A stretch of DNA of 61,292 nucleotides, filler included, from Sphacelaria rigidula (taxonomy: Eukaryota), in NCBI GenBank assembly GCA_964200075.2. It is 9 parts of 9 records of this genome, joined end to end, with 100 filler letters (N's around TTAATTAATTAA, not from the genome) between each part and the next. Parts side by side here need not be neighbours in the genome. Positions count along the whole stretch, not along the records: positions 20,467 to 27,187 come from CAXNAA020018420.1; 8 more parts are not named here. One strand, written 5' to 3'. Below are positions 6,723 through 54,584 of this stretch, one piece after another. Numbering within the stretch: position 1 is the first letter of the stretch; each line of letters begins with the position of its first letter. The position numbers and the translations under genes are program-made. The notes under the pieces are model-generated. The model was not told where the DNA came from and did not search any database. It worked only from the letters and a program-made list of their open reading frames with translations.

Positions 6723-6822
6723 NNNNNNNNNNNNNNNNNNNNNNNNNNNNNNNNNNNNNNNNNNNNTTAATTAATTAANNNNNNNNNNNNNNNNNNNNNN
6801 NNNNNNNNNNNNNNNNNNNNNN
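6723..6822. other. Artificial contig spacer (N-run + TTAATTAATTAA + N-run); also at 13545-13644, 20367-20466, 27188-27287, 34009-34108, 40830-40929, 47651-47750, 54472-54571
   Basis: Identical 100-bp spacers containing stops in all six frames. The intervening contigs are 6722, 6722, 6722, then six of 6721 bp. Confidence 0.97.
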
Positions 6823-13544: not shown

Positions 13545-16500
13545 NNNNNNNNNNNNNNNNNNNNNNNNNNNNNNNNNNNNNNNNNNNNTTAATTAATTAA
13601 NNNNNNNNNNNNNNNNNNNNNNNNNNNNNNNNNNNNNNNNNNNNAAAGTGAATGATCAAAGCCACTCTCAATCGTATCATCTACTCTCAATCTCACGAAA
13701 ACACTGTTAGCAATGGGTCTCCACGTACGATTAAACCGAGCATCTCGACCGCTAGCCAAGGGAATCTGCGTGGGCCATATATATGTGGAGAACTGTTCAG
13801 CGTACTTATCACAATGTAACTACGCAAAGCCCGATCGTCGGGGTTCTACCTCGAGACGGGACACGTAAAACAGACTGCGAAACATTCGTGCGACAGGGAA
13901 GGAATTATCGCTTGAGGGTTATAACTCCATGCATATATGGAGGACGCACGATGCCCACCAGATACAAAACGCCCGCCCGTCCGAGGAAAGCGCTCTGAGT
14001 GGCAACTTCAGTGACCTTGGTATCTTTTTCGGTTTCACAGTAGCTTTCCTACGCATATTGGGTGAAGCGGAATGCCTGTAACAACCATCACCGCCTCTTA
14101 TTCGACAGCATTAACCGTCGCCTCTTCCACGGGGTGGAGGAGGGTGTACCATGTTTATCCTTTGCCCGTCCTAAAGTTCCATTTCAAATGCATACCGAAG
14201 AACCACGAAAGTAGGATTAGTACGATGATAGCTGATATCTCTATATATGTTACGGTAAACATAAGTATACATGGCAACCATAAATCGCAAAAGATAAACC
14301 TGTGACTAATCGATACTGCGGGTTTTCTGAAACATACGGGATGATTGTCATCAAAAGATAGCATAAAGCTCTTCACTGAAAGCGAGCCTAAGCGTACATA
14401 TGCACCACTCGAGCGGTTCCCCAACGAAGTCAACAAAAGGGTTGAACACAATTTGCGATCCCAAGCGAACGAAGCCCAACGCGATGCTTCAGATAATACG
14501 AGTACGTTGCATACCTGAAGAAGAATCAAGAACGACGTTTGCTGCGAACTGCTTCTTGGTTAGACCCTTTATTTTGGCGAAGCGACGGGTCGAAACATCC
14601 CCGACAAACGTGGAGCGTGGCCGTGCGGTGATGGTTGCCATGGCGAATGGTCGCACGAAATTTCCATAGCGATCGATCGAGCGGGTGTTTGAAACGTACG
14701 CACGGGCAGGCACGGGTGGCGGGGTGCACGGAGGGGGATTGCCACGGGATTCGGAGCGCAAGAGGTAACAGCCTTACAGTCAGGGCACTTTTAGTTCTTC
14801 TCGATGTGACCGCTACAACCTCTTCTTGCCTTGGCCAAATACAGGAAAAAAATATTGTGCAGGCTTGTGTTTCGTCCATCTTACCGCGGGAACAGCCTGC
14901 GCGATCCCAACGCTTAGTAGAAGGCCCACCGCCCGTCCGCAGTTGATCTTGCTAGGAGACATCGCTATTGAGTTGGAGATGACGTACAAGCTTGTCGCTG
15001 CTGATGCCTGTCGGTGGAGAAACGTTGGTGGTAATAAGGAAGAACGCGCTGCAGTTGATGAGCAACGGAAGAGACAAGGCCCAATCAGTAGGGGTTGCAA
15101 ATTGAGCACAAACGTTTCTAGGGTAAGGAGCTACTAAAGCCAAGGGAGCTGAACAATACGGACACGGAGCTCCCCCCCCCTCCCCCTCCCCCTCCTCCCT
15201 CCCGGAGAGCATTTTTTCGAAAATTGTCGCGATTCCCTCATTTTATATGTTTTGCTGTTGCAAGATATTGATCAATAAACACTGACAAACACCGAAAAGT
15301 CCGGTGGGCTTTGCGGGGTTCGTATATTTGCTTCTGCTCCTTGCCCGCTCTGTCCCGACCTCAGATGCCGGCCACGCTTACACAGATGTATGTACACAAG
15401 CGTACGGTAGCGACAGACTGTAGTCAAAGGAACAACAATATCTCACACCTCGCCAAACTTGCCCCGATTACTGGTAGATACTAGAGCCACACGACACGGT
15501 TCATGGTCCCGTAATTGTTATCATGGTAAGTGTAAGCGTGGAAAGGGCGGTCTCCATGCCAAGGATCCCTGTACACACGGCACCTGACCGTATCCGCTAG
15601 GACCTCGGCAATAAACTAGGGGACAGCAGGCTGGGTGTCCGCTCAATCCCCTTACCTTCCCCTCCCTCTCCCTTCTCAAAAACTAAAGGTCTCGATCTCG
15701 GGGGCTGGGTGTCCCGATATCGTTTGCCCTCAGTCCCCTGGTTAGAACCTCAAAATTTTATTATTCATTCACGATATCCCTAGCCCATCGAAACGCATAT
15801 CGTGTGGTAGTGTACTACGGCTTCGTCTGTATTGTTGTATACATCTAACCACCAAACATATATGTTAAAGGGAGACTTTTCTAGGCGCGCACTCATTTAC
15901 CATGTTTTTTGTTCCCGCCCACCCGTTGCTAGTTTAGATCCGCAAGCTTATTCCCCGAACCGATTACTGGCGGACCCCACTACAACTACCCACACGAACG
16001 ATGCTTTCTATCATGGAAAGTTTCTCGTAGCACGACGGATGAGTTATTGTGTTATTATGGCGTGGCATGTTCTACACGCTCTCAGACATGAGTTTTTAGT
16101 GGTATGTTGTTGCATTTATTTAGCACGATGTGTCAGACAAGAGAACAAGCTCGGAAAAAGAAGTTTCCGCAACCACCACAGGATATTTGATTGCGGGCGC
16201 CGAGCCGCCCTGCGCCGCGTGCCCAGACGAGGACGCGCCCGGCCATCCCGCTCGGCCCCAGCCCNNNNNNNNGAAAAAAGAAGTTTCCGCACCCACCACA
16301 GGATATTTGATTGCGGGCGCCGCGCCCCCCCCCCCCCCCTCCCCCGGCCCCTACGCCCCCCGGCCCCTACCCGTGAAACGCACAAGTCACCAGCTTCATG
16401 AAAAAGTCTCGACCAAGTTATCGGAGGAACAGTTGGGCTGTCCGCCAAGACTTTGATCCGTTCGCCATGAAAGGGGACGAACATAAAACGGCGGAGATAC

Positions 16501-20240: not shown

Positions 20241-20782
20241 TATTATACTGTTGCTTGGTGTCCGCTGTACAGAGTGTACAGTCCGCACAGCAGAGCAATG
20301 CTACGGTAGGGGTGCACTTTTTTCGCGAAATTTTGTCTGGTTCAGGGGCTCCTAACGTTCTAGACGNNNNNNNNNNNNNNNNNNNNNNNNNNNNNNNNNN
20401 NNNNNNNNNNTTAATTAATTAANNNNNNNNNNNNNNNNNNNNNNNNNNNNNNNNNNNNNNNNNNNNCCAACTCTAAATGTATAAAAGAGCATGGGCCTGC
20501 AAACTTCAAATCCGCCTCTAGGCTGGCCCAGCTCGTAGGGTTGAAAAACCCTGGGACTGAACGCGGTTTACACGAAGGATCGCCGCGTTACCATATCTCT
20601 CTTCCCGAGTAATCGGCGTCTTGGTGTAGCCGTCGATATTGATAACCGTTCTGCCGGGTTAGACTACGTGGAGCATTTCAATACCGCGCAGGAACGATTC
20701 TATCCCGCCCGGGGGGGGGGGTCCGCTGCCTTGCTGACCGCTCTGCCGGGTTAGACCACGTAAGGAGTTCGAAAACCGTTCA

Positions 20783-21395
20783 TCAATTCGACCCCGGAAC
20801 TGCTCCGGTATCCTGCCCATTCACCGCATATTTTTGCACCTCTAACTGCGTCATCTCTTCCCAATCCCCATCCTCATACTTGATACGATAATACGGCTGA
20901 CGGGAATCGAACACTACCCCGTCGAACTCCTGCTGCTCACCTTGGCTGTCCACAAACCGTTTACGGATTTTGGTCCCTCGGGGAATCTGTCGCAAAGCTT
21001 CATCCCGAGCAATAGAGTCTCTTTCTGCTCGAGATGGCGTAACAGATGGGCGTGGTTTGGCTTGCGGGTGATATAGTTCCCACAAGGCATGAAACACGTC
21101 CAGCTGCAACCCAGTGAAACTGTCCAAAACATCCTCCTCAGAAAGCCAGTGGGATTCGGCTCCGTCATGAAATAACCCCCGATAGGCCAAATAAATAAAT
21201 AAAGGCCCACTCCCATGACGATCCTGATCCTAGCGCCACCTTCCTATCTGTCAATGTGTACAGTTGCGGGACGGACTTGATCTCCTCAGCCAACCCCAAA
21301 TCAGCCCCCCATGCTAACTCAGAGTACTCGTTCGACAAGGGATGTCGCAGATGTTCAGGGCGCACATGAAATTTCTTCACATTGGCTGCCGACAC
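20783..21395 (-). pseudogene. Integrase C-terminal extension: chromo-like domain (about 21110-21265) and Tudor-like domain (about 20825-20990)
   Basis: LYTLTDRKVALGSGSSWEWA/YRGLFHDGAESHWLSEEDVL fits a chromo-like pattern once a 19-bp insertion is removed. GTKIRKRF...EFDGVVFDSRQPYYRIKYEDGDWEEMT fits the Tudor-like Y-x-I-x-YEDGD-x-E pattern. Confidence 0.7.
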
Positions 21396-21401
21396 CGTCC
21401 G

Positions 21402-22499
21402 TTATCGTACCTTGCGCCCCTCCATGCTGACCTTAAGGCTTAGACCGGGTATCACCACTTGCTGTACCGTCCATGGTCCCGTCCACAAGTCGTGCACTAG
21501 TTTAGTCGGCACATCTTCGTGTACAAGGTTGCCGTCGGACTCTTTCACTAGCATCGGATCCCCTACCTGAGCTCGCGACCGCGCCGACTGGCGAATCAGC
21601 TCGGCATTTCTAGCCGATCTTACCTCTTCCCTTTGCTTGTGGCGTTGGGTCAACAGCTCGTGAACCTCCTTCAGGCTCTGGCGCTGTTGTTCCACCGTGT
21701 TGTTCAACGGTGGAGACTCCGCTTCAGGTGACACAGCGTCTATTTGGGTGCGTGGCTCGCACCCAAAAAGCAGCTTAAATGGAGTCGGGTTATTAGGCAA
21801 TGCCGGGTCGGGAGTAGTACGGTGAATCCATACAGCGGGGTCTATGTACTCATCCCACCTTTCCGGCCACTGCTTATAGAGCTCGGCTAAAAGGTCGTGC
21901 AACCATCCCCCGTACCTCTCCACCGCCCCCTGACCGCGAGGGTGCTCTGCCGGACCATGATCCAGCTTCACCTTCATCCACTGGCATACATGGTTCACTA
22001 CCTCCGACGTGAACTCCCCCCCAGCGTCACTCCTTAGAAAGTAGGGTACCCCGAACGTCAAGAAGAGCTTCAGCAGACATTTCGCTACGGGTACCGTGAG
22101 CTTGGCAGCCAATGGGGAAGCAAAGAGAAACTTGGTTGCTCGATCCACTATGATCAACGAATACCTGTTACCCGAGGCGGAAACCTGCTTCATGTCCGAT
22201 ATATCCATCTCTAACACGTCCCATGCCCGCAGGAATCGGGCGGGCCGCATCGCTAGGGTGTGACTGTTGGTACACTTGCGTCGGCGACATCCACAAGACA
22301 ACACGTATTTGCGAGTATCGGCGGAAAGACCAGGCCATTCGTACCGTGCGTTAACTACTGCGGTCGTCCTCTTTACTCCGGCGCGCCCGTGCGTAGTGTG
22401 CACCCACGCCAGCAGACCTGGCACTAGGCTGCGTGGGATAGCTAACTCGGCTGGCTCCTTAGGGGAGGTGTACCATAGAAGATTATTCTCATCTAGCAC
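21402..22499 (-). pseudogene. Gypsy integrase (H2C2 zinc-binding region + rve DDE core)
   Basis: HTTHGRAGVKRT...SCGC (degenerate HHCC); catalytic residues in LEMDISD, LRSDAGGEF and GAVER; TPFKLLFG and WTGPWTV motifs. Confidence 0.92.
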
Positions 22500-22849
22500 G
22501 TACCCATCCCGTCTCTTGCCAGCTACTTCATCCGTAGGCCCCTCTTTTAACCTCCAAGACAGAAGTCTCGCTCTTGTAATAAAACGAGTTGCAGTTTGTC
22601 CACCAGGATCGCCCTCGTTTGTTCGAGAACGGTTCTAGGGTTACCTTTACTTGGTATTGGCTCTTCAGCTGAAGCCTCCCCCCCACCCGAGTCCTGGTCC
22701 GACCTATGTTCTGCTTCGGGAACCGACGAGCAAGTTACGGCGGCTCCCCAAGTTTCCAGCAACTCTGCATCCTCATGCGGCCATATAGCCGCAAGCGCAC
22801 TCAGACCTACGTCCTCACTCCGAATCTGAGTCAAACTCAACAAACCTTC

Positions 22850-23750
22850 CGCTTCCAAGCTTGATACAACCCCCCCCCCATCATCCACGGATAAACGAAA
22901 CAAGCCACAATATCTGGCATAGCGTCGGGGTCTACCGTGGGTGGGGTCTCGTAGTGGTCGAGGGTGGTCGCGATTTTCACGAAGTCGACTCTTTCCAGCT
23001 CTACTGCTCCCTCCTATACCCCTGCGTTCGCCCTGTGGGGTGTGAATTCCTCGCGCCGAGGTTTCCCTCTCGTCAGCCGAGGACGAGTTAACCTGGGCAT
23101 CGGATCCTCGAAACTGTGAAAAGCCTTGCCTCGCCCTGTCGGCTCCATGAAGTATGTGCCAGTTCGCCCCAATAGCTGACTCAACGGGGGGCAGGTAACA
23201 GCTTACGCTTCCATTAGCTGCCTCCACGCGCACAGTGGTTCTTCTCCCTGCCGACCAGCCTTCAAAGCGACCACATAGGTCCGTCTCTTCCGGTACGGGG
23301 CGCCCACCTGCACGGCGGAGATGGATGCCTGCTCGATGCAGCAGCCGGCTCCGCTCAGCAACGGAGCCACGCTCTCCTTCCAACCCGGAGAGTGCACCAT
23401 TACACCTGTAATCTCCTAGATCAGAGTTGTCGCCGAGACTGAGCAGAGGAACGACTCGACCAATTCTCGGACACCATCTGCGGATTCCGATTCCCCCGCA
23501 CTTTCATCCACGGAGGCAACCCTACTCGTATCTCCCACCAGCACTTCTGGTTGCACCTCCTCCACGAAGTTGTAGAAAGAAGGCGCCCTGGAGTCGTACG
23601 TACAAGCTTGAATCCCTTTCCAATTCGGTTTATTCTGACACAATCCAACGCCTTCCAATCTGCATCGGTGGCTGCTACCACTTCCAAGAACTTCTCCGCG
23701 GCCAGAACGCTTCCCCCGCCTCCGCAATGGACAGTCAAAGCGGGGGGTCG
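22850..23750 (-). pseudogene. C5 cytosine DNA methyltransferase-like domain inside pol (degenerate active site)
   Basis: Collinear motifs after one frameshift near 23588 and reading through three stops: I ALTVHCGGGG; II/III VVAATDADWKALDCVRIN; IV PEVLVGDTSR; VI LI*EITGV; VIII ISAVQVGAPYRKRRTYVVA; TRD-like HSFEDPMPRL; IX AVELERVDFVKIATTLDHYETP; X DIVACFVYPWMM. Confidence 0.78.
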
Positions 23751-24009
23751 TTGGTTAACCGGTCCGGTCACAGGGTTCTCGGAGTCAATAGTAACCCCGT
23801 CCCCCGTTCCCGGTGGATACAACGCGCTGACCTCCTCCAACGCCAATGCCATCACGTCTGCGGATTCTTTCGGACACTCAGCTTCCAGTTCCTTCGGTAA
23901 CATCCCGTCCTGTTTGGGTCCTTGCGGTCCTCCCCCTCCGCCTGGTCCAGCTTCGGTATCATCGTCAGGGACTGACACGTCAATGTCACTGCCCCTGGGT
24001 TGGCTCACT

Positions 24010-25640
24010 TGCAGCCGGGACAGGGCGTCCGGCAACTGGTGTTCGCGTCCAGCTCTCCACTTGAGGACCATATCATACTCCATCAACCTCAGCGCCCACC
24101 GGTGGAACTTGGGCGACAAGTTTTGACTACGAAACAGCCATGTCAACGCACTGCTATCCGTAACAAGCGTAAACTCTCGCCCCCATAGATACGATCTGAA
24201 TCGCTCCACGGACCACAGAACAACGACTACTTCTCTCTCTGATGCCGATCTTTTTTCATCTGCCCGAGACCATCTATGACTAGCGTATTCGATGATCCAT
24301 TCCCTCTCATCCGCCTCCTGGGCCAGGGCGACCCCTGCTGCGAACTCTGAAGCGTCTGAGTGTAGCACGAATCGTTCATTCCAGTCCGGGTACGCCAAGA
24401 TCGGATACGACATCAGAGCGCTCTTCAAGTCTAGGAATGCTTGTTGCTGCTGGTCCCCCCACGGAATCTCCATCCTCCGCGCTCGCTTGGAGGCGAATCG
24501 CGGGTCTCTCAGTAAGTCTGTGAGCGGTGCCGCCGGGTTACTATCCCCCTTTATGTACCTCCGCAGATATCCAGTCTTACCCAGACACAACCTCAGCTCC
24601 TCTACCCTCTGCGGCTCCCCTAACTGAGCGATAGCTTCGATCTTGGACTGGGAAGGTCGTATTCCCGACGCGTCGATCGTCATCCCTACGAAGTCCTGTT
24701 GCTGGGTGCACCATTGTGATTTCTGGAAATTCACAGTGAGGCCGGCCTTCAGCAAGCTATAGAGCACAACTCTCAACCCCGTCATGTGGCCGGCGAAAGT
24801 CGCACTAGGCCACAAGATATTACCCAACCACTTTTTGACACCCCGCGCCGGCAACAACGCTTCGGATACTGGTCGGTGAAACGTCGCTGGTCTTACTGTG
24901 AGTCCGAATCGACAACGTTGATATTGCCATACGTGCCCCCTCGCATCGCGAAAGGCGGTAAAGGGTCGGTCCTCCTCCGCCACTTCCAACTGGAAAAACC
25001 CACTCGCTGAATCCACACTCGTAAAGTACTTGGATCCCGTTAGGCCACTATACGTGGTCTGCATATCCCCCAAACCACCGCTATACGACTCGAGGAGTTC
25101 GTTTAGTCCACGAAAATCCTGACACAACCGTAAACTACCGTCCTTCTTCCGCACCGTGACGCAAGCAGCTGCCCATGCGGACCTCGACGGCTCAATGGTC
25201 CCCCGCTCCGCGAGTTTCTGGACCTCATCTTGTATAGCTGTTCCTTGTTCTGGCGAGTACCGCCTAGTACCGGCAGCGAATGGCCGGCACCGGTGATCTT
25301 TCAGTCGTGGACGCAACGGTTCCCCACGCGCAGCTTTCACCCGCTTGGGGTCCACCGCGAAAAGACCTGCTTCGTTGATGTCTCTTGACACGGATAACAG
25401 CTGGATCTTTTGCGCCGGACCCAACTGGCCCACGTTCGCTTCCGTGAGATCTACTCCTGTGGCCTCAGTTGTGTCCTTTTCCTCCACTTCCGCCGGTTCC
25501 TGCGACGGTTGGGGAGGGCTCGGCGCAGTCCCTCGATACTCCAGCCTCGACTTAAGCGTGGTGCCCGAGTCGGACACGTTCAGATTTTGCAACCGCTCGC
25601 GATCTCGAACATTCACGGCTACAACCTTCGTCACTACCAT
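24010..25640 (-). pseudogene. Gypsy reverse transcriptase and RNase H
   Basis: SAWAAACVTVRKKDGSLRLCQDFRGLN, YFTSVDSASGFFQ, RCRFGL, and YxDD box degenerate to WLGN. RNase H motifs LHSDASEFAAG, ERE, VTDSSAL, DALSR. Confidence 0.95.
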
Positions 25641-26099
25641 AACTTTTTGTTCACCAGGCGAGCACTCTTGGCCGTGTTGACCACCTTACATACTAACGGC
25701 AACTGTGGATCCCACCACTGCACTCCCCTGGCTACCCCTATCTCGGCTTCCTCCTCTAAATCGAACACTTTCCGAAGTTCGATCAATACGAGTTGACGTT
25801 CCTGCGGTTGAGGACCTAGCACGTAGCCTGAAACTAGCTCGCTAACGAAGCCTTCTAACCGTGGGTCCTCCGTCAGCCGTAGAAGCCACTGAAGTGTAGC
25901 TTCGTCCTCCCACGCCGCTCCAAGGCTTTTCCACACCTCATCCCATGCTGCCAGATCGCTCTCTCCCGACAGCACCCCAGTCGGGTCGTCACTGAGTGCG
26001 CTTGGCTTGACAGCACAGAAGAAATATCACCTTGCCGAATCTCCTTGGCCGGTGAGGTGATCGGTGTCAACAGCTCCGAGTCTTCGTGAACCATTAGAC

Positions 26100-26540
26100 A
26101 CGAATCTTACCCACGGGGCCTCCGGCGAAGGTCGAAATCCTGATCGACCTTCAAAAGACAGTGTGCTCTTGTTCCTTCTAAAGAAACTTGCCCCCAAGAC
26201 AAATCCGTACGGCAATCCATCGACCACCCTAACCCATACTTTACTTACCCTGTCCTTTGGGTGGAACCGAATCGGAATTATCGCTGACCCCAGAATCTTC
26301 ATCGGTGGCGTCCGGCTGTCACTAGGGTTTGCTGCCCTCAGAAATCCTGCTCCCTGTCGCTGTAGCTTGCCTGTTATGTTACCCCAAGTTACCAACGACT
26401 TCCACCACTGCTTTGATGCATAGCTACCCCCCCCCCCCCCCGGCCCCGGTGTCCAGTAACACCATTACTGGTAAACCGAGGCTACTTTTACTGTGATGCC
26501 AAACTCTAGCTTGCACCCACAGTTGCTGTGCATCATTACC
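26100..26540 (-). pseudogene. Retroviral-type aspartic protease
   Basis: VMVLLDTGAGG active-site motif (about 26443-26468), a G-run frameshift, then ...YGFVLGASFF. Confidence 0.85.
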
Positions 26541-26606
26541 TTTCACTGCTGCTAACCTACCCGCCTCTACGCTGTCCCCCGGGGACTGCGGCCCCAGGGC
26601 GCACCT

Positions 26607-27050
26607 TCATTCCTCGCCTGTGGCGTCGAAACGGTTGCTCAGCTCATCAACCGTCTCGACTCCCTCCTCCTCGTCGACGCTTTCCGGTTTGTCCAACCTG
26701 TGGTCGAACCCCCGATCTTCGTTCTGGCTGTCGATTAGTCCGAACAACTCCCCCAGTTGTAGGCTCATCAGCCTATCCCTCTTTGTCTGAGGCCTTACTT
26801 GGGTCTGCTCCGGCTGCTTGTAATAACCGAAGGGAATGCGGTATTTGTCATGGGAGTAGTTGCAGTCATCTGTGTCCTTGCTGCTGCAGTCTCGCCCGTA
26901 CGCGTGGTTGAAGCACACTCCCAGCAATCGTATGGCGACCTCACGCTCCTCCTTGGGTGCATTGCGGGCGGGAAGGAACCCGGTCGCCGGTGCTTCTCCT
27001 CGCGTGTTGAACTTGACATGCTTGGTTTGCTTGGTTGACTCTTGCTTGGT
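26607..27050 (-). pseudogene. gag C-terminal part with CCCH-type zinc finger
   Basis: CFNHAYGRDCSSKDTDDCNYSH (C-x8-C-x7-C-x3-H) immediately upstream of, and in frame with, the protease. Confidence 0.6.
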
Positions 27051-27902
27051 TGATGCACAGCAACTGTAGGTGCAAGCTAGAGTTTGGCACCACAGTAAAA
27101 GTAGCCTCGGTTTACCAGTAACGGTGTTACTGGACACCGGGGCGGGGGGGGGGTGTACTTATGATCATGCATGCCATAGTCATAAGANNNNNNNNNNNNN
27201 NNNNNNNNNNNNNNNNNNNNNNNNNNNNNNNTTAATTAATTAANNNNNNNNNNNNNNNNNNNNNNNNNNNNNNNNNNNNNNNNNNNNGGGCAATCAGGCA
27301 GAAGAAATCGTGAATTTGGTGATTTTGAGTCGTGATGATTTGTCCTAACCGTGGAGTGTTTGCACCAATCGTGTACAGTCGTGATATCCTCATTCAACAG
27401 ATGTGCACTGCGCTTTACCGAAACCCTCGTTGCGTCTCCCAACACTCCCTCAGCTCAACCTCTGACGCTTTCCTGGCATGACACTCTGACCCTGGCTACA
27501 ACAAGCATGCACACCATGTACACGCGATACAAACCGAAAATTATGACGTAGAAGTGGCTAAAGCAAACATCAGGTGACCCAACATATGAACTTACTCGTG
27601 GTTGAGTTGGAAACTAGAACAAAACATTACTGTTGGTTTTCACAGTACCCAATATTACACAAGAGGTGGGGGTATTCAAGTATCGGAGCACATGTTCGCA
27701 CGCACATGTACACGGTACCCAATATGACCAAAGAGATGGAGATATTCAAGCATGGGAGCACATGTGCCCGTGTAATAAGATTCGGCAAATATGTATATTT
27801 GTTTGCGCGTGTGCACATACCAAGTTCGGTATCAAAATTGTTATAACTTGCTTCCGACGGTCGTGTGTACTGCTGTTGAGAAAAAAAGACATCCCCTTTT
27901 CT

Positions 27903-29112: not shown

Positions 29113-29677
29113 TTTACATTTTGTAGCAGTGGAACATAACAGAATCAAACCAGGCCAGTAGTTCGGAACGTGATCAGGCATCTTCGAGTTCAGGACGATT
29201 TCCCCTTACTTGCCTATGGTGTATATGATCTCCCCCAACGTTGTCAGTTATTCTGCCAGTGGAGAGCAGCTCCCCAAAACGTTGGCAGGTGTTCTACAAG
29301 CTCTGAATTGTGTAATACTGCATGTATCATGTCCGGTGAAACACGACTTGGTATTATGCGTTCAAGCTTGTCTGCTTTCGTTCACCTGTGGTACCCTTTC
29401 AAAGCTACTTGTACTTCAGATCCATACTGCCGTATTGGTGAGGAAGTTCCATTCATTCAAAGAACGCTGGGCACTAGAGTTGTAGCCGTGGCGATCTGTT
29501 CATGTAAAGCGTTATTTCAGTAAGTGCAGGTGGCACCTCTTCTCCCCGTTGAAGTGCGACGATAGGCTCTTTTTTCAACTCGATTCTCCTGGAGCTGACA
29601 GAAAACCCTCCGTTGTTTTGCCAATTGTGCTCCCGCGAAATGTTATTTTTCTTCAGGAACACCACGCGGCAGAGCTG

Positions 29678-31492
29678 ATGGCCAGCGTGGCAGAAAGGGA
29701 GTGCATCAACGAGGGCTGCTCGAAGCGGCTATCGTTCGGTGTACCGGGCCACAAAGCGGAGTTTTGCTTGAAGCATGCCAGGGTGGGAATCGTGGATGTG
29801 GTGAGGAAGAAGTGTGGCGACGACGGCTGCTTGAAGAAACCGTCGTATGGTGTAGCAGGAAGCAACAAGGCGGAGTTCTGCTCTCAGCATGCTGAGGCGG
29901 GAATGGTGAATGTGGTGAAGAGGACGTGTGGCGACGAGGTCTGCTCTACCAGGCCGTCGTATGGCGTAGCGGGAAGCAAGAAGGCGGAGTTTTGCTCGAA
30001 GCATGCCGAGGCGGGGATGGTGGATGTGAAGAGGACGTGCGGCGACGAGGGCTGCTCTACAAGGCCGTCGTATGGCGTAGCGGGAAGCAAGAAGGCGGAG
30101 TTCTGCTCTCAGCATACCAGGGCGGGAATGGTGGATGTGGTGAAGAGGAGGTGCGGCGACAAGGGCTGCTCTACAAGGCCGTCGTATGGTGTAGTGGGAA
30201 GCACGAAGGCGGAGCTCTGCTCGAAGCATGCCAGGGCGGGAATGGTGGATGTGGTGACGAAGAAATGCGGCGACGACGGCTGCTCGAAGCAGCCGTCGTA
30301 TGGTGTAGCGGGAAGCAAGAAGGCAGAGTTTTGCTCTCAGCATGCCACGGCGGGAATGGTGGATGTGGTGACGAAGAAATGCGGCGACGACGGCTGCTCG
30401 AAGCAGCCGTCGTATGGTATAGCGGGAAGCAAGAGGGCGAAGTTCTGCAGAACGCACGCCAAGACGGGAATGGTGAACGTGGCGCACAGGACGTGCGGCG
30501 ACGAGGGCTGCTCTACGAGACCGTCGTATGGCGTAGCGGGAAGCAAAAAGGCGGAGTTCTGCTTTCAGCATGTCCGGGCGGGAATGGTGGATGTGGGGAA
30601 GAGGACGTGCGGCGATGAAGGCTGTTCTACAAGGCCGTCGTATGGTGTAGCAGGAAGCAAGAGGGCGGAGTCTTGCTCTCAGCATGCCAGGGCGGGAATG
30701 GTGGATGTGGTGACGAAGAAATGTGGCCACCAGGCCTGCCCCATGCGCCCATCTTGTGGTGTGGCGGGAAGCAAGAAGGCGGAATATTGCAAGAAGGCAG
30801 AATTCTGCTCCCACTATGCCAAGGCGGGGATTGTTCGTGTGGTCAGCTACAGGTCTAGCAAAGAGGGACGCTTGAATCCGGATAATTTCAATAACGACAA
30901 CCTTGATGTCGCAATGTTGTGCCGACAGCATCCCACTGCATATGAAGCAGCTACAGTATACGACATGGAGAACCTCAGCACTGGGGAGGCAACCTCCACC
31001 CGCAGCACAACCGATGGTAGTGAAGGAAGCGTCGCTGGCGTGCGAGGAACAAAACGCAAGCGCGGACCATGCTTGAGTTCTGGTACAGTCGACGTTGTTG
31101 ATGCTCAACGTAGTGTGTCCCCTGTTGCCAGGCGTAGTGGTGTAACACCACTTTTACGCTCGGGCCAGGTACTGTCAGGGGCTGGTCGTGAGGTGTCTTC
31201 CGTGCCAAGGGTAGGAGGAGGAATCAAGGTAGAGGTGTCAGCTCCTTCTCCTACGCACGGTGGTGCTGTGATGGAAGAGTGTAGCAAGCACACTTTCCCT
31301 TTGAGGGGTTGGAGCAGTGCAGGTGGTCAAAGTGGCTCCGGCAGTAATATTTGTGGTGTGAGTGCGGGACGGCTATATTGTTCGCCGGCAGTTGTATGTG
31401 GGTCTCTTGTCCGGTTCGTTGGTGTGGAATCAGTAAAGACGTTGGAGGGTTCAAGCGTGAAGTTGGAGCTAGGAGTTGCGTCCGACAGATGA
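29678..31492 (+). CDS. EsV-1-7 cysteine-rich repeat protein (10 repeats plus 1 degenerate)
   Basis: Uninterrupted ORF with ~38-aa units C-x4-C-x3-PSYGVAGSKKAEFC-x2-H-x3-GMVDV, the EsV-1-7 signature. ATG at 29678. A possible splice acceptor TTTTCTTCAG ends at 29656, so an upstream exon may exist. Confidence 0.92.
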   Translation: MASVAERECINEGCSKRLSFGVPGHKAEFCLKHARVGIVDVVRKKCGDDGCLKKPSYGVAGSNKAEFCSQHAEAGMVNVVKRTCGDEVCSTRPSYGVAGSKKAEFCSKHAEAGMVDVKRTCGDEGCSTRPSYGVAGSKKAEFCSQHTRAGMVDVVKRRCGDKGCSTRPSYGVVGSTKAELCSKHARAGMVDVVTKKCGDDGCSKQPSYGVAGSKKAEFCSQHATAGMVDVVTKKCGDDGCSKQPSYGIAGSKRAKFCRTHAKTGMVNVAHRTCGDEGCSTRPSYGVAGSKKAEFCFQHVRAGMVDVGKRTCGDEGCSTRPSYGVAGSKRAESCSQHARAGMVDVVTKKCGHQACPMRPSCGVAGSKKAEYCKKAEFCSHYAKAGIVRVVSYRSSKEGRLNPDNFNNDNLDVAMLCRQHPTAYEAATVYDMENLSTGEATSTRSTTDGSEGSVAGVRGTKRKRGPCLSSGTVDVVDAQRSVSPVARRSGVTPLLRSGQVLSGAGREVSSVPRVGGGIKVEVSAPSPTHGGAVMEECSKHTFPLRGWSSAGGQSGSGSNICGVSAGRLYCSPAVVCGSLVRFVGVESVKTLEGSSVKLELGVASDR

Positions 31493-33720: not shown

Positions 33721-35139
33721 TAACTCTTAGATAGCGACACCCCCGCAGGCGGTTTGTAATTGAATATACTCACACTCAATGATGGATGCATGTAATCAGG
33801 CCTGGATGCATGGGAAATGGATATTGTGGTTGGTTTATGACGTATGGGTGAAGGGGAAATAAGAGATACAGTTCTGTTATCAAGGGCATATACCCGATTT
33901 GTTGGTTGCAGCAGGGATCCGCTGAGAGGCACACGCCCAATCGCGTGGCCAAGGAATTAGGTTCTGACGTGTTGTTTTCCTACATGAGTGGCTCTTAATG
34001 ATTGACCANNNNNNNNNNNNNNNNNNNNNNNNNNNNNNNNNNNNNNNNNNNNTTAATTAATTAANNNNNNNNNNNNNNNNNNNNNNNNNNNNNNNNNNNN
34101 NNNNNNNNATAAAAAAAAGACTCACTTAAAGCGAATGAACAAAGCCACTCTCAATCGTAACATCTACTCTCAATCTCACGAAAACACTGTTATATGTAGA
34201 ACAGACAGAGTGGATGAAGAGAGAAAAAAAAGGAAAGAAAGAATGGAACAAAACAAGAATTCTGTAAATGACCGCCCTCCGAAAAATGGCTTCGGCGGAA
34301 GAGGTCTTGCGCAAAAAGCACACTCATATACCCGATTGTACAAAACAAAACGGCCTGCGGTTCATTTATGTCGACCTGGATATAAGAAGTACCTGAATAT
34401 TAGGCTTAGAGCTCTTGTAAACAAAACTTCGTGTCTAAAGATCCGAATTATTCTCCTGATATATTTTCGCGGTATACGATGATATCTTTGATTAGTACTG
34501 TTCGAGTGACGGAAGCATTTCCTATCCAACAAGCACACTATACACAGGATGACGCTGCACTACCGCACTCTACCATGATGTATGCCTGAGCGGTGTACAC
34601 AGTACGATGCTCTTGGAGTGTACGCCCTACGAATGTGCACTGCGAGGCGTGCTGCCATCGCGCGGAGGTCAAGATATATGCCCTACCGGCGCATGTTGAT
34701 CCCGATTTGTGGTCACCAGGGAACAACTTGTTCGCGGATTTGGGTAATTGGAGTTCGGGGTTGGGTTGGGTCACTGGCGAGGAATTTGATTTCTACCTCA
34801 CGGGGATAGCAAACTGGCCCGAGCCTGTGGAGCGCTTCGCACACATCGATGTTCATACCACGAGTGGACGTCTTTGACAGATGTTCCAGAGAAGCAGCCC
34901 ATTCGAATATAGGCATAACAGATCCGTGAAGGGTCATCCATGTCCCAGACGGACATTTTAGGCCGACGTTCGTACGGTGGTGCAGATGGAGATTCACATG
35001 CCATAGGCAGGTTCATATCCAGATGGAGATCGATAACCCAGATGGAGGTCAAGATCCCAGGTGGATCGCCCAGATGGACCTGGGATTGTAGATGAATATA
35101 CCGGATTGATTCATCAATTGATCAATATATATATATATA

Positions 35140-39600: not shown

Positions 39601-41299
39601 TCGTGGGCAGAGCCAAAGTCTACATCGTACTTGAATATCGAGATTGATGTGGGATGCCCCTCGGAACCTAGGGTATCCAGTAGGGTATCCGTCGTTACAA
39701 GGGGGATCTGTTTTGTTCACCTTGGTTACATCTATCGTTTGACCACAGCTAGATTCCTACACGATCAGCTCATGTACAACAGCCGCCGCGCCCCGGTAAT
39801 CCACCTTAAAATGGTACAACTGACACCATTAGAGCGGGAATAAGGCCGTTTCGATTCCCATCAGATGCATCTCGTTTGGATTTTTTCCCTGAAAGGGACC
39901 TGGTTCCCGCCGTTGAAAGCGTGAGAACGTACGTACGTCAGTAGCAAAAACAATCAGTGTGGCCAAAGGGTTTGTTAGACGGCAGTCGACGCAGATCGGC
40001 AGCGCTAAATCAATACACGATATCAATATATAAGGTGTGTACCGGGAGAGAGAGAGAGAGCTTCGTTCGCAGAGTCTGGTTCCGTCATCGAGGTAATACA
40101 TTGCTCATCACAATTTTTCTTTTTGTTTCTTCAGCGGTAGAGCATGCATGACCAAGTTGGTCTGCAGTTCACAGCAATATGCTTCAATCGAGCTGATTCG
40201 AGAAACTGAAGAAGTTGTTGTGTACGGGGGGGGTTCGGTGTTTCACGAACTGGCCCAGCTCGTATATATTTTTGCCGAACGTTCAGCCCCTTCCCTTACC
40301 CGGGGCCAGCCCGTATCCTGGAGGGACCAAGTCGTCTTGTCCCTCCGTACACTCGTTACACGTGCTAATTCGGGTTGGGTCAGCCATCTCGCGCCGCGAC
40401 TACTCTCGGCGACCAATTAATTGAGTTTTGTTACTCGCGTCCCCGCGCTTTCAATGAATTTCATACAGTTGTTTTTCCAACAAAGCCACATCTGCCAGGT
40501 TTTGAACCCTTAATCTGCCTCGACTCGTTTCAGTTGCATCAAATTACTTATATGTGTACTGCAATCAATCAGGAATATTGAATCTGCTACGGCTATCACT
40601 TAACGCCCGACTTGTGCAGTACCGAATCCTACAATCAGTAGTATCACTATTGTTGGCTGGTTGTTCAGATCCTGCAACCTTTTCTGCCTCCGGTCGAAGT
40701 TCAGTCGTCCTTTGCTACCCATGCGCCTTTTGGACGAGCATGAGGGGCATCGCTATTCCCCCCCCCCCCCCCCCCCCCCGCCCCCGACCTCGACACCACC
40801 CCACGACCACAACAACCCGAGCAAACCCCNNNNNNNNNNNNNNNNNNNNNNNNNNNNNNNNNNNNNNNNNNNNTTAATTAATTAANNNNNNNNNNNNNNN
40901 NNNNNNNNNNNNNNNNNNNNNNNNNNNNNTTGCACTCTGTGATCACGGGTTCGAGAGACCGAGCTAATGTGATGGATATAATATATAATAATATAATAAT
41001 ATAATATATTATTCTTATTCTTATTCTTATTCTTCTTATTCTTTGTCGCACTTTGAACCCCTCCCCGTGCTCGGGATGAGTCCGTGGTCTCAAGGGATCA
41101 ACTCATCTCCCCCCCGGTACACGCCCGCTATGCTGCAATAAAAGTTCAAAGACGAGACATCAAACGTGGACACACTATCCGTGGCCTGCAGGAGTACGGA
41201 GACATCATGTCATCATGTCATCCCGACAGTACGTACCCTGACAGTTACCGTCACTCGCCAGCCATTTGCAGGACAAAACACAAAAGAGCTCTATCCCAC

Positions 41300-45592: not shown

Positions 45593-47750
45593 TGAATATC
45601 AATATGTTCAATAGTGATGTCGATTAGCACACGAGTGGAGCGTGCTACCTGCTATCGTTCAAGCCCAACATTATTGTTCTCGTAGCGTCACAAAATGATG
45701 TGATTTTCGCTGCTCTTGGCTTCGTCTTTACCCTAGACTTCTGGGAGACGACTGAAGTGCCCCCGAGAGCACCTGAACGTCCCTGAGAGTACTTGAGCTT
45801 GTTGTGCGTCCGGAAACGAGAAGGACGATACCGTGCGCGATGACGGCTGTTGTAGAATACTAGACCGCTCCTAGGATTGTCTACAACATCTTCTGCAGCG
45901 ATGAGTTCGGGATTTCCGCCGGTCATCGGCCACCACGCGCGATCATGGCGTCCGCGGATACTAGTCGCGTCTGTAGGTTATTTACAGCCTCTACTGCCGC
46001 GGAAAATTCGGTAGTTCCGCTGGTCATCGCTCCTCGCTCGATATGTGGACGGTTCTATGTCCTCAGCATATCATAATATCTCTATGGCTTGTCCGGGGCG
46101 CATTACCTTAAAGTGCCGCCTTTCGTCGACAATATACTACGTACAAAGACGTTCACCGTAGGATACAAGACGTATCTGAAGTTTGTCTTCGTCATCTATT
46201 GCTGCTGTGAGTGCAGTAACTCCGCCGGCCTTCGCCTCTAACCCGGTGTCCAGACGTGTTTGTATGTTCAACGATCATGATCTCAGCAGGCCTCTCTTGC
46301 TGTCGACACTTTACACTGCTCGTAAAACCGCCTCCACGAAATTGAATATACGAAGCACGCTACCACGCACGACCGTAGGATACTAGGTAGATCTTGCTGT
46401 GCATTCTCTACGGCATCTACTGCCGCTGTCAGTGCAGTCTTCACGTTGGTCATCGCTTGTCCCCCGATGTGTCCACTTGTCCGTGCTCTCTTACATAGTC
46501 ATGATCTAGGCGATCAAGCGTTCCTTGTGGAGCACATGTGCCTTCCAAATTTGCGTTTTTTCAAGCACACGACCACATGCGATGACTGCGACTAAGGGTA
46601 CTTACTTTACCTGTGTGAGCTTTTTTTCCACGGCATCCCCGGGGCACATTCATTTCTTACACTTGCCTGTACAAACACTGTTAATCTTGGGCCATACTAC
46701 TCGTTACTCGGCCCCTTGTGTTGCACTCCCCCGGAAACAAAGACTGGCTACTCGTCTACCGCCGTTAAGGTAGAACCCGGTACATGGCTAAGAATGAAGC
46801 AGCAGTAGTAGTACCGTACTCGTATCGTAGTTAGACATACTTGTTACCGCAGCTCGTATTATGTGGCGTACATACCTTCGATAGGTCGTGGATCTGTTTA
46901 GAGCACGAATTCGTGAATATATCAGGCGACAAGCGATGGTCTGGGGAAATACTGCAGTGACCATAGCTACCGTAGACAACACACAGCAAGGTCTAGTATC
47001 GTACGGTCGCGCGTGGTAGCGTGCTCCCTACGTTCCATTGTCAGAGGCACTTGAGCACAATGTGCCCCCGGAAAAGACCTATGGAGATCATGGTTAGAAA
47101 TACGTTCACGTTTTTATATCGGATGAGAAACGGTTACCAGCAGCAGTACTGCACCCACAACTGGAAAGGATGCCGCAGTTAGCCCTCAGTCACGTCTGGT
47201 GTCCTGCAGTACCCGCCATCGCGGGTGGTGGCGTTGTATATAGTTTCTATCTTCGGGGCACTTCAGCTGCATATTTAGCTTCATAAGACGACCTGTGTGG
47301 AGAGATTGTTATCGAGAGCACGAACCCGTCTGCACATCGACCGAGAAGCAATGAACAGGCTACCCTCAAGCAGGTCCAGTATTCTACGGTCGCCGTCGTC
47401 GTGCGGGAAACTCGTGCCCATACCGCGAAAATAGTGCGTATGCTTGCTCCGTGTCCAGTAGAATACTCACTACTCTCAATACACGAAGCACCTTCGGTTT
47501 CAGAGGTGCACCTACAGTACGTCCCGCAGCCGACTCGGTAGGATTTGGGGGTACCGTCCCCCCTTCCCCCTTCCAATAAAAATAAAGCAACTCATTGTAG
47601 GCTGGTATCCAAATGCAAGATGATCAGTAGGCTTCGGGCCGAACAATCTTNNNNNNNNNNNNNNNNNNNNNNNNNNNNNNNNNNNNNNNNNNNNTTAATT
47701 AATTAANNNNNNNNNNNNNNNNNNNNNNNNNNNNNNNNNNNNNNNNNNNN

Positions 47751-53276: not shown

Positions 53277-54584
53277 TTAATCTTTTGATCGCCGGAGATG
53301 TCTATCTGTGAGACCGGCATCTTTTTTCTTGATAGCACACGTAGTCCGCACGGTCCAGCAACGATGCAATGCAGCCAATATACCGCTGGCAGACAGTTGT
53401 TCAGTACATGCATGCATGGACGAACGGCAAAAAAAAAACACTCTCTGGGCAATGACAATAGACTACAATGTCAAACAGTGTACTACAGTACGTACGATAT
53501 GGAATCTGTTGTTTATTGCAAAAGACGCAATAGTCTATGCTGTACGCAGTACACTTCTCGACAACGTAATTTATTTTTGTCGTTCTCCAGGATGTGCCCA
53601 CAAAGACATAGTACCGGGTGCTCCTGATCATGCCCACTTCCCGGCGACATATGGTGCACCGTCCCGTCGAGGAGTCGACATGTGCTGCCGAACGCCCAGT
53701 GATATCGGAACAATCCAGCAAGATGAGACTTATAAGACACGTTCCTTTTCGTCTAGTGCTCTGTATATCTTATCTTGACACTGGTCGCTCTCGCATAGGA
53801 CGCGTTCTTTCTTCGCTGCCCGTCATTTCACTGCCAGCCTCAGAATAGCCCGCCGCAGGTGTACAGCATGACGCACCTCGAGATGTCCGATGTGCAGGAG
53901 AAATATTCCCAAAATATCGGCACAAATGGCTCAGACGGGAGATCGAATGCACTCGAATTTCAAGTGAACGAAAATGATGGCCTATCATGGCTCGAGAGTT
54001 CGTGCAACGCTGCGCTGTGAGGCGTCGAGAGAAAATTCTTCCGGGATCCGATGAAAATTCCAATGTATCAAAATGTGATATTATGAGTCTTGGCATTCGT
54101 GTAAACTATGTGGGACCATCTGCAGTAATTTTCGCATAGCATGTGCATTAAACTCTCCTCCGCTCCACTGCATGAATTATGGCATTGTTCTGCCATCCTG
54201 CGGAGATACAAATCTCCGCACGGTAACGGTACACAAGAAAATACGAGCCTCCGGAGCGGACGGGACTCAAATACGTGCAAGCCACACATTCGCAGCTGGT
54301 AATTTTCGTATCATTATAGAATATTGACAACACCGAGCATCTTCGAGGTTGCAGCGACATTGATCACAACTGCCCCCTCCCCCCTCCCCCCCCCCCCCCC
54401 CCCCCCTTTCCCGGCCCTCCCCCAAGGGTGGTGCAACAACGGCGGTCTTTTTTTAGTGTTTTCCGGCTTTCNNNNNNNNNNNNNNNNNNNNNNNNNNNNN
54501 NNNNNNNNNNNNNNNTTAATTAATTAANNNNNNNNNNNNNNNNNNNNNNNNNNNNNNNNNNNNNNNNNNNNCAATTATTATAAT

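Follow-up and report, generated by a model that had tools for sequence, protein, structure and literature searches.

A highly divergent domain, probably derived from a C5-methyltransferase, between RNase H and integrase in a Tudor-bearing Gypsy lineage of brown algae

What is encoded between RNase H and integrase in a Gypsy retrotransposon of the brown alga Sphacelaria rigidula? The element lies on the minus strand of one piece (positions 20467-27187) of a 61,292-nucleotide stretch of DNA from this species (GenBank assembly GCA_964200075.2), which was analysed at its full length and is called the window here. The linker is split over several small reading frames, and the original prediction held that it hides a C5 DNA methyltransferase (DNMT)-like domain, captured independently or acquired horizontally in a brown-algal Gypsy lineage and delivered with the Pol polyprotein to the new complementary DNA (cDNA). 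As described below, the linker very probably represents a C5-methyltransferase-derived domain that is carried in frame within Pol in this lineage. The domain is very divergent and routine domain searches miss it.

In the window, positions 22867-23756 of the minus strand encode about 300 amino acids that are broken by one frameshift and three stops, as had been noticed before. Translation of 22400-24100 on the minus strand gives ALTVHCGGGGSVLAAEKFLEVVAATDADWKALDCVRIN in the frame that is continuous with the open reading frame (ORF) for reverse transcriptase (RT) and RNase H (23421-25685), and this frame includes ALTVHCGGGGS...VVAATDADWKALDCVRIN. A second minus-strand frame reads EVLVGDTSR ... 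LI*EITGV ... ISAVQVGAPYRKRRTYVVA and holds all three stops. A hidden Markov model (HMM) of the family, made from 11 homologues without any window sequence, was searched against the entire 61 kb window, translated in all six frames, and gave two matches only, the next best having an E value above 3. The first match (23586-23756, minus strand; HMM positions 5-61, E 1.2e-14) is the N-terminal part of the domain, which lies in the RT/RNase H frame and contains motif I (CGGGG) and motif II (ATDADW...RIN). The second match (22867-23571, minus strand; HMM positions 67-300, E 6.8e-51) is the C-terminal part. It comprises the loop of motif IV (GDTSR), the strand of motif VI (LI*E), motif VIII (GAPYRKRRTY), the region for target recognition and the helices at the C-terminus, and it is 56% identical to the homologue P0123 over 195 amino acids and 30% identical to P0003. 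Since the HMM matches in different frames on either side, the frameshift, which had been placed near 23588, must lie between 23571 and 23586 on the minus strand.

The lesions are not common to all related copies. Contigs from four public runs cover parts of the stretch with 85-100% identity, and some of them have a length that deviates by a single base where the frameshift lies, as well as sense codons at two of the three stops. None of the runs listed for the stretch is recorded as RNA; one run that may be RNA has contigs identical to parts of the stretch, from which no conclusion about expression is drawn. On the minus strand, the first in-frame stop (23416-23418) is located inside the motif VI strand and the third at 23014-23016, both at positions where relatives have a sense residue, and the second (23203-23205) corresponds to a sense residue in the homologues P0123, P0126 and P0127. 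Thus, the copy in the window is a dead pseudogene and makes no protein.

The homologues show what the intact domain looks like. When the read-through of the stretch (with X at the stops) was compared by HMMER with 1.84 billion representative sequences, 74 proteins, most of them fragments, were found at E <= 0.001, 29 of which at E <= 1e-10. Thus, the likeness is far above chance. Among 124 long Gypsy polyproteins that were gathered by a search with the RT/RNase H ORF, eight are matched by the domain HMM (P0003, P0197, P0201, P0202, P0004, P0005, P0012 and P0015). Moreover, the domain is present in P0137 (identified by blastp) and in P0203 and P0210 (identified with the HMM). A word-index search with the read-through yielded no match among longer proteins, and the same type of search with the 11-sequence profile yielded P0003 and P0203 only. 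In P0003, P0197, P0201, P0012, P0137, P0203 and P0210, the domain is in frame and flanked by RNase H and integrase; in P0004, P0005 and P0015, it follows RNase H. In P0003, P0197, P0201 and P0012, a single open frame encodes RT, RNase H, the domain and integrase, which bears out the expectation that intact relatives keep the domain in frame with pol. The sources named for P0004 and P0137 (Cladosiphon okamuranus, EukProt) and for members of the P0203 cluster (Laminaria digitata, NCBI) place the domain in at least two brown algae, in agreement with the proposed brown-algal lineage. The P0004 protein (C. okamuranus gene model g6222.t1) has two RT and two RNase H stretches according to Pfam and is devoid of an integrase; it runs past the methyltransferase-like domain into a second partial element and looks like a merged or nested annotation.

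Indirect evidence from the comparison of intact copies suggests that the domain has been kept by selection in recently active elements. Between P0003 and P0197/P0201, the methyltransferase-like domain is 95.0-95.3% identical, RT/RNase H 96.5% and integrase 97.8%, and the linkers before and after the domain are 86.6-87.8% and 92.3-92.9% identical, respectively. In deep pairs, the domain can be aligned over its full length with 35-60% identity, as compared to 49-65% for RT/RNase H. The conserved position also bears on the idea that the domain is foreign to the element, either as a host gene fragment or as an assembly chimera that happens to lie beside this copy. It is true that the window consists of concatenated pieces and that the copy is rearranged at its upstream end. 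However, the domain is contained within a single piece, where it is collinear with Pol. It is found at this same position in 11 polyproteins or fragments of several different sources, and the contigs from the four public runs, as mentioned above, cover parts of it. A foreign origin of this kind is therefore extremely improbable, the least probable of all explanations considered here.

The prediction that the linker has a C5-methyltransferase fold was followed up by structural modelling. The AlphaFold2 model of the P0003 domain was based on 62 aligned sequences and has a predicted local distance difference test score (pLDDT) of 93.6 and a predicted template modelling score (pTM) of 0.90. The underlying alignment comprises 58 of the 74 homologues and the domains of four long proteins; 16 homologues were left out, namely P0137, on account of its length, and the shortest or weakest sequences, which were removed manually. 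A Foldseek search against the PDB returned C5-methyltransferases in all listed rows to rank 50, with a best E value of 3e-11 and template modelling (TM) scores of up to 0.67. The matches include DNMT2, M.HhaI, M.HaeIII, MET1, DNMT1, DIM2, DNMT5 and a C5-carboxymethyltransferase. In two independent high-confidence models, 19 C5-methyltransferases rank top and are separated from generic methyltransferases by a Z gap of about 9-12, and the structural alignments of both models take in the target-recognition part. The models contain the two-part fold, that is a Rossmann catalytic domain and an inserted target-recognition domain, with C-terminal helices that return to the catalytic domain. The best viral structure match in the BFVD is a phage C5-methyltransferase (E 1.5e-17). 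Thus, the structural search supported the predicted placement of such a domain between RNase H and integrase of a Gypsy element.

Sequence profiles point in the same direction. PF00145 matches eight of the 62 family members (E <= 10), always on profile positions 95-196, and it is the only Pfam family that matches more than two of them. The best match, P0157 (E 5.3e-05, 23.2 bits versus a cut-off of 22), is the sole member above the cut-off. The proposed search with PF00145 thus gave mostly sub-threshold matches in a minority of the family and found nothing on the window pieces themselves. A comparison of the family profile with an annotated phage C5-methyltransferase using hhalign gave a probability of 86% and an E value of 4.7e-06 over 168 columns, with motifs I to VIII in register. 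This enzyme served as comparator; tblastn with P0157 against phages had given weak matches only (E 0.04) to a phage methyltransferase and was used just as a source of the comparator. In a language-model look-up, 30 of the 30 nearest clusters carry PF00145 (top score 0.96), which was treated as a lead only. Both the best structural and the best profile matches are prokaryotic or phage-type enzymes, which is the only hint that the domain may have been acquired horizontally.

The register of the motifs was set by the alignment to the phage enzyme, and the motif columns were tallied over the family alignment. In the phage alignment, motif I corresponds to CGGGG, the acid of motif II to the D of ATD, the G-x-P-C-x loop to G-D-T-S-R, the E-N-V strand to L-E and GxPQxRxR to GxPxxKRR. 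The assignments of motifs I, IV, VI and VIII that had been made from the sequence alone are thus in register. The S-adenosylmethionine (SAM)-binding motifs are strongly conserved: the three glycines of motif I, for which the window has CGGGG, are present in 12/12, 13/14 and 14/14 members, and motif II has Asp or Glu in 16/16 (ATD in the window). The G-V-P of motif VIII is kept (Gly 49/55, Pro 47/55) and so are its basic positions, with Lys or Arg in 47/55 and then Arg or Lys in 50/55, while the position of the phage Gln is occupied by Ser, Thr or Tyr. The Glu of motif VI is present in 40/44 members and is followed by Cys (22) or Ser (13); in the window, a stop lies just before this Glu. The catalytic position in motif IV is variable, with Cys in 14/31, Ser in 13/31 and other residues in 4/31. 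The window and P0003 have Ser at this position; Ala is found in P0005, and Gly in P0203 and P0210. Cys is found in P0004, P0012, P0015 and P0137 and in several fragments that are equally distant from both groups. Judged from this distribution, it is likely that the ancestral loop was G-[ND]-[AS]-C-R and that the Cys was lost several times.

Several observations weigh against a derivation from C5-methyltransferases or against their activity in this family. Pfam finds nothing on the window pieces, nor on the intact proteins P0003, P0005 and P0015; for P0004, it reports a weak match to the generic methyltransferase family PF05175 only and no PF00145; and PF00145 is silent on 54 of the 62 members. 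The family profile matches no PDB sequence at E <= 10, a search of the PDB sequences with the window pieces returned nothing relevant, and the comparison with E. coli Dcm by hhalign was not significant (E 0.43), though the register is the same. A Pro before the catalytic position occurs in 0/31 members, Asn follows the motif VI Glu in 1/44, and the full E-N-V triplet is found in no member. Motif X usually has G-N. This pair was not seen in the aligned C-terminal part. Furthermore, a signal of selection is missing among the differences between the domain in the window and the related contigs: of the 23 best-supported differences, which come from the 40 listed of 243 for the stretch, seven are synonymous and 16 are not, and random transitions would give 34% synonymous changes. 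This is expected because the copy is dead. The observed/expected ratio of CpG in the element is 0.91-1.03 and thus the same as in the flanks, which means that there is no deamination footprint of CpG methylation.

It could be argued from the silence of Pfam on the window and most members, from the lack of a PDB match for the family profile and from the insignificant Dcm comparison that the likeness is due to chance or to a generic Rossmann-type methyltransferase, and that the linker was not derived from a C5-methyltransferase at all. However, a generic methyltransferase does not account for two independent models in which the 19 C5-methyltransferases rank top by such a large Z gap and the target-recognition part is aligned, for eight PF00145 matches in one register with one member above the cut-off, or for the hhalign result with the phage enzyme. 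We consider this explanation to be highly improbable.

How might such a domain be used by the element? The overall explanation that we favour, and that we hold to be somewhat more probable than its negation, is a C5-methyltransferase-derived Pol domain that was ancestrally an enzyme and became a non-catalytic module in the sub-lineage of the window. In this view, the stretch in the window is the remnant of a domain with a Rossmann catalytic part and a target-recognition part, and the Pol order in this Gypsy lineage is protease, RT, RNase H, methyltransferase-like domain, integrase and Tudor. The ancestral domain may have been a working SAM-dependent enzyme because many members have the Cys in the canonical register, the Glu of motif VI and a basic motif VIII. 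Being made within Pol, it would accompany the particle and the pre-integration complex, and it could then act on the cDNA of the element or on the target DNA. In the sub-lineage of the window, Ser, Ala or Gly has taken the place of the nucleophile, but the fold is retained, as are the SAM-binding motifs and the basic motif that faces the DNA. For this reason, the domain, if it is used at all, is proposed to be a non-catalytic SAM- and nucleic-acid-binding module like dead DNMT paralogues. We give a non-catalytic role in this sub-lineage an even chance. A dead copy in a sub-lineage without the nucleophile lends no support to the predicted delivery of methylation to the new cDNA by a Pol-expressed enzyme.

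The domain could also be an active de novo DNA C5-methyltransferase throughout the family. It would then be made in Pol and methylate either the new cDNA or the site of insertion. Indeed, both domains of the C5-methyltransferase fold are predicted by the models and motifs I and II are conserved. A Cys is in the canonical register in 14/31 members, and the motif VI Glu is present in 40/44. Moreover, there is a precedent in the DNMTs of DIRS elements of Symbiodinium, which perform de novo CG methylation in yeast according to the accessible part of the original report (PMC5890265). However, Ser, Ala or Gly occupies the position of the nucleophile in the window copy and in the intact relatives closest to it, and the Pro-Cys pair is absent from 31/31 members and the Asn-Val after the Glu from almost all. 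CpG is not depleted in the element, translation of the window copy is impossible, and brown algae are described in the available sections of two studies as having no or very little 5-methylcytosine (5mC) (PMC13076208; bioRxiv 10.1101/2024.02.19.579948). An enzyme that is active throughout the family is therefore unlikely. The Cys-bearing relatives are, judged from their catalytic loops, candidates for real activity. That these members, for instance the Cladosiphon-type elements, are working retrotransposon-encoded C5 DNA methyltransferases that stem from a prokaryotic or phage-type enzyme rather than from a host DNMT is, at present, an unlikely idea. If it were true, they would be the sole DNA cytosine methyltransferases in brown algae that lost DNMT1, DNMT3 and DNMT5.

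Alternatively, the domain might act on RNA like DNMT2 and introduce m5C into the genomic RNA of the element or into the tRNA primer in the particle. DNMT2 is indeed among the structural matches, as listed above. However, no DNMT2-specific feature turned up, and none was specifically tested for; a DNA methyltransferase of a phage ranks first among the profile matches, and the phage C5-methyltransferase in the BFVD among the viral structures; and the problem of the nucleophile is the same as for DNA. An activity on RNA thus appears decidedly improbable. Returning to the domain as a formerly enzymatic, now non-catalytic module, DNMT3L is a catalytically dead DNMT paralogue that has lost the SAM-binding motifs too. 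The proposed fate of the domain in the window sub-lineage resembles that of DNMT3L in that the DNMT fold would be kept under constraint after catalytic loss, and differs from it in that motifs I and II are kept. We know of no partner enzyme in brown algae.

When was the domain acquired? In a quick maximum-likelihood tree of RT/RNase H with 47 rows, in which branches were evaluated by the Shimodaira-Hasegawa-like approximate likelihood ratio test (SH-aLRT), the RT of the window falls into a long-stemmed clade of 17 rows (SH-aLRT 100) together with the Ectocarpus protein P0020. Within this clade, a domain-bearing group consisting of P0004, P0137, P0012 and P0015 (support 99) is sister to a second clade (support 92), which comprises the domain-bearing window element, P0003 and P0005 (support 83) and ten proteins without the domain (support 100). 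The latter are P0020 and nine clade-mates, none of which has a match to the domain HMM at E <= 0.01. A remnant of the domain in this group of ten was considered and discarded on the basis of that search. The simplest reading of the tree would be one gain at the base of the clade and then one loss in the branch with the Ectocarpus protein P0020. It speaks against this scenario that it relies on a quick tree and on SH-aLRT values of 92 and 83; the well-supported branches are also compatible with a single origin and no loss. The window element has both a Tudor domain after the integrase and RT kinship with P0020, and by these sequence characters it belongs to a Tudor-bearing Gypsy lineage of brown algae, of the type recently described from Ectocarpus.

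Retrotransposons that carry DNMTs have been described previously. As far as the accessible text of de Mendoza et al. (2018) goes, they comprise SymbioLINE-Dnmt, a long interspersed nuclear element (LINE), and SymbioDIRS-Dnmt3, a DIRS element, of Symbiodinium, as well as elements of streptophytes; their catalytic residues are conserved and the DIRS type methylates CG de novo in yeast (PMC5890265). Another study, in the part available, calls the DNMT elements of streptophytes and dinoflagellates 'LTR Copia and DIRS' (PMC12344493), LTR standing for long terminal repeat. Going by these excerpts, the known elements are LINE, DIRS and Copia rather than Gypsy (PMC5890265, PMC12344493), which differs in detail from the background of the original prediction. 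Like them, as they are portrayed there, the family of the window has a domain with a predicted C5-methyltransferase fold inside a retrotransposon, within or beside the Pol ORF and in many copies. In contrast, the Symbiodinium and streptophyte domains are, by the same partial accounts, recognisable by Pfam and group with DNMT3 or other known eukaryotic clades, whereas the domain described here resides in a Gypsy element with Tudor, has no Pro-Cys and, in a part of the family, no Cys.

A canonical C5-methyltransferase domain also occurs in P0082, a 2358-amino acid Gypsy polyprotein with a C-terminal PHD finger that is encoded on an ENA contig of 18 kb (PF00145, E 8.1e-08). P0082 resembles the window family in being a Gypsy polyprotein with such a domain. 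It is unlike the window family in that the domain (residues 953-1137) lies upstream of RT (residues 1443-1596). By hhalign, no profile similarity was detected between the family and the DNMT of P0082, and the RT of P0082 groups with green-algal proteins of Monoraphidium and Haematococcus, far from the clade of the window. P0082 may therefore represent another separate DNMT capture by a Gypsy element of the green-alga type. These comparisons support the view that the capture in the window lineage was independent of the known DNMT-carrying retrotransposons; at least to P0082, the one other DNMT-carrying Gypsy polyprotein encountered, there is no sequence relation and the RT sits elsewhere on the tree, in accordance with the predicted independence. 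The identity to the structures 3lx6, 8yf3 and 3g7u, to M.MpeI, M.HaeIII and M.HhaI, to the methyltransferase of Cellulophaga phage phi18:3 and to DNMT2 is 9-16%. Compared with the prokaryotic and phage C5-methyltransferases and DNMT2, the family differs in that Ala, Ser or Thr replaces the Pro that precedes the catalytic residue, E-C or E-S replaces E-N, and Ser or Thr replaces the motif VIII Gln. The domain is also fused within a retroelement polyprotein.

In Ectocarpus, the 11.5 kb element Gypsy-10_Ec32 has a C-terminal Tudor domain and is described in the accessible text of the respective study as the first transposable element known to carry one; the same text reports a Sola1 DNA transposon encoding a protein with ParB and N4/N6-methyltransferase domains (PMC12477816). 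The window element is like Gypsy-10_Ec32, as far as it is portrayed there, in being a Gypsy element with Tudor C-terminal to the integrase, a comparison that was made by description and not by sequence. The accessible text mentions no C5-methyltransferase for Gypsy elements, and 'methyltransferase' and 'DNMT' occur 0 times in five supplementary files (PMC12477816). A full-text literature search, outside of which lay subscription papers and some supplements, gave no report of the domain either. Apparently, a C5-methyltransferase-derived domain in a Tudor-bearing Gypsy lineage of brown algae is unreported.

For brown algae, the available part of one survey states that DNMT1, DNMT3 and DNMT5 are completely absent and that the tRNA enzyme DNMT2 only is present (PMC13076208), and that of another survey restricts DNMT1 to Discosporangium and outgroups (bioRxiv 10.1101/2024.02.19.579948). 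Both hold, in these parts, that brown algae lost DNA methylation early in their history, and the methods given there are BLAST with identity cut-offs and standard domain tools (PMC13076208; bioRxiv 10.1101/2024.02.19.579948). Such methods would not see the domain because Pfam misses 54 of the 62 members. In the methylome of Saccharina, about 1.4% of the cytosines are methylated, mostly in CHH context, and this was tentatively ascribed to DNMT2 for want of another enzyme (PMC6916402). The domain family thus provides a testable candidate source of unexplained residual 5mC in kelps, and it calls for caution when DNMTs are declared absent by sequence profiles alone. Moreover, the domain would be the third type of DNMT capture by retrotransposons, independent of the others and in a new class of element, and the series from Cys-bearing to nucleophile-less forms can reveal how a retroelement benefits from a methyltransferase fold that is catalytic or has ceased to be so.

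The remaining parts of the element are found on the same strand. The intact relative P0003 (1978 amino acids) is collinear with the window over 27153-20825 according to tblastn, from the protease region to the Tudor domain. The protease-like N-terminal part of Pol (25667-26600, minus strand) has the D-T-G motif in LLDTGAGGG and is 44-45% identical to P0003 residues 27-70 and 97-337 (tblastn). RT and RNase H are encoded by one ORF of 754 amino acids (23421-25685, minus strand), with the RT core at 24675-25154 (minus strand; ORF residues 178-337; PF00078, E 1.7e-10) and RNase H at 24075-24461 (minus strand; ORF residues 409-537; PF17919, E 2.1e-27; PF17917, E 6.7e-26). Downstream of the methyltransferase-like domain, the H2C2 zinc-binding domain and the catalytic core of the integrase are located at 21939-22439 (minus strand; PF17921, E 4.3e-09; PF00665, E 2e-07) in the ORF 21402-22634. 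The Tudor-like domain C-terminal to the integrase follows at 20834-20977 (minus strand; PF21743, E 8.3e-07, 29.1 bits versus a cut-off of 27.2) in the ORF 20783-21229. The piece 20467-27187 contains no LTRs and no long direct repeats, and it holds an internal fragment of the Gypsy element (minus strand) between artificial spacers. At the upstream end, 26433-27153 is an inverted duplication of the 5' region of the protease, with two arms (26433-26535 and 27051-27153) of 103 nucleotides that are 96% complementary and 515 nucleotides apart and that encode the same peptide on both strands. It is either a rearrangement of the dead copy or an assembly artefact. A short direct repeat (20639-20686 and 20731-20778; 48 nucleotides, 75% identical, 92 nucleotides apart) lies downstream of the Tudor-coding end.

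The window is a chain of pieces of about 6.7 kb, and pieces that are side by side are not necessarily neighbours in the genome. Runs of N recur about every 6821 bases, and the junctions have the form N44-TTAATTAATTAA-N44; these artificial spacers give stops in all frames. They are located at 6723-6822, 13545-13644, 20367-20466, 27188-27287, 34009-34108, 40830-40929, 47651-47750 and 54472-54571, and there is a further run of eight N at 16265-16272. The piece after that with the element contains an ORF on the plus strand (29486-31492) for a protein of 668 amino acids with EsV-1-7 cysteine-rich repeats (PF19114, E 8e-153, 10 stretches). The EsV-1-7 family is greatly expanded in brown algae, in keeping with the brown-algal origin of the window. 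Within this ORF, positions 29687-30895 form a tandem repeat of nine copies with a period of about 114 nucleotides.

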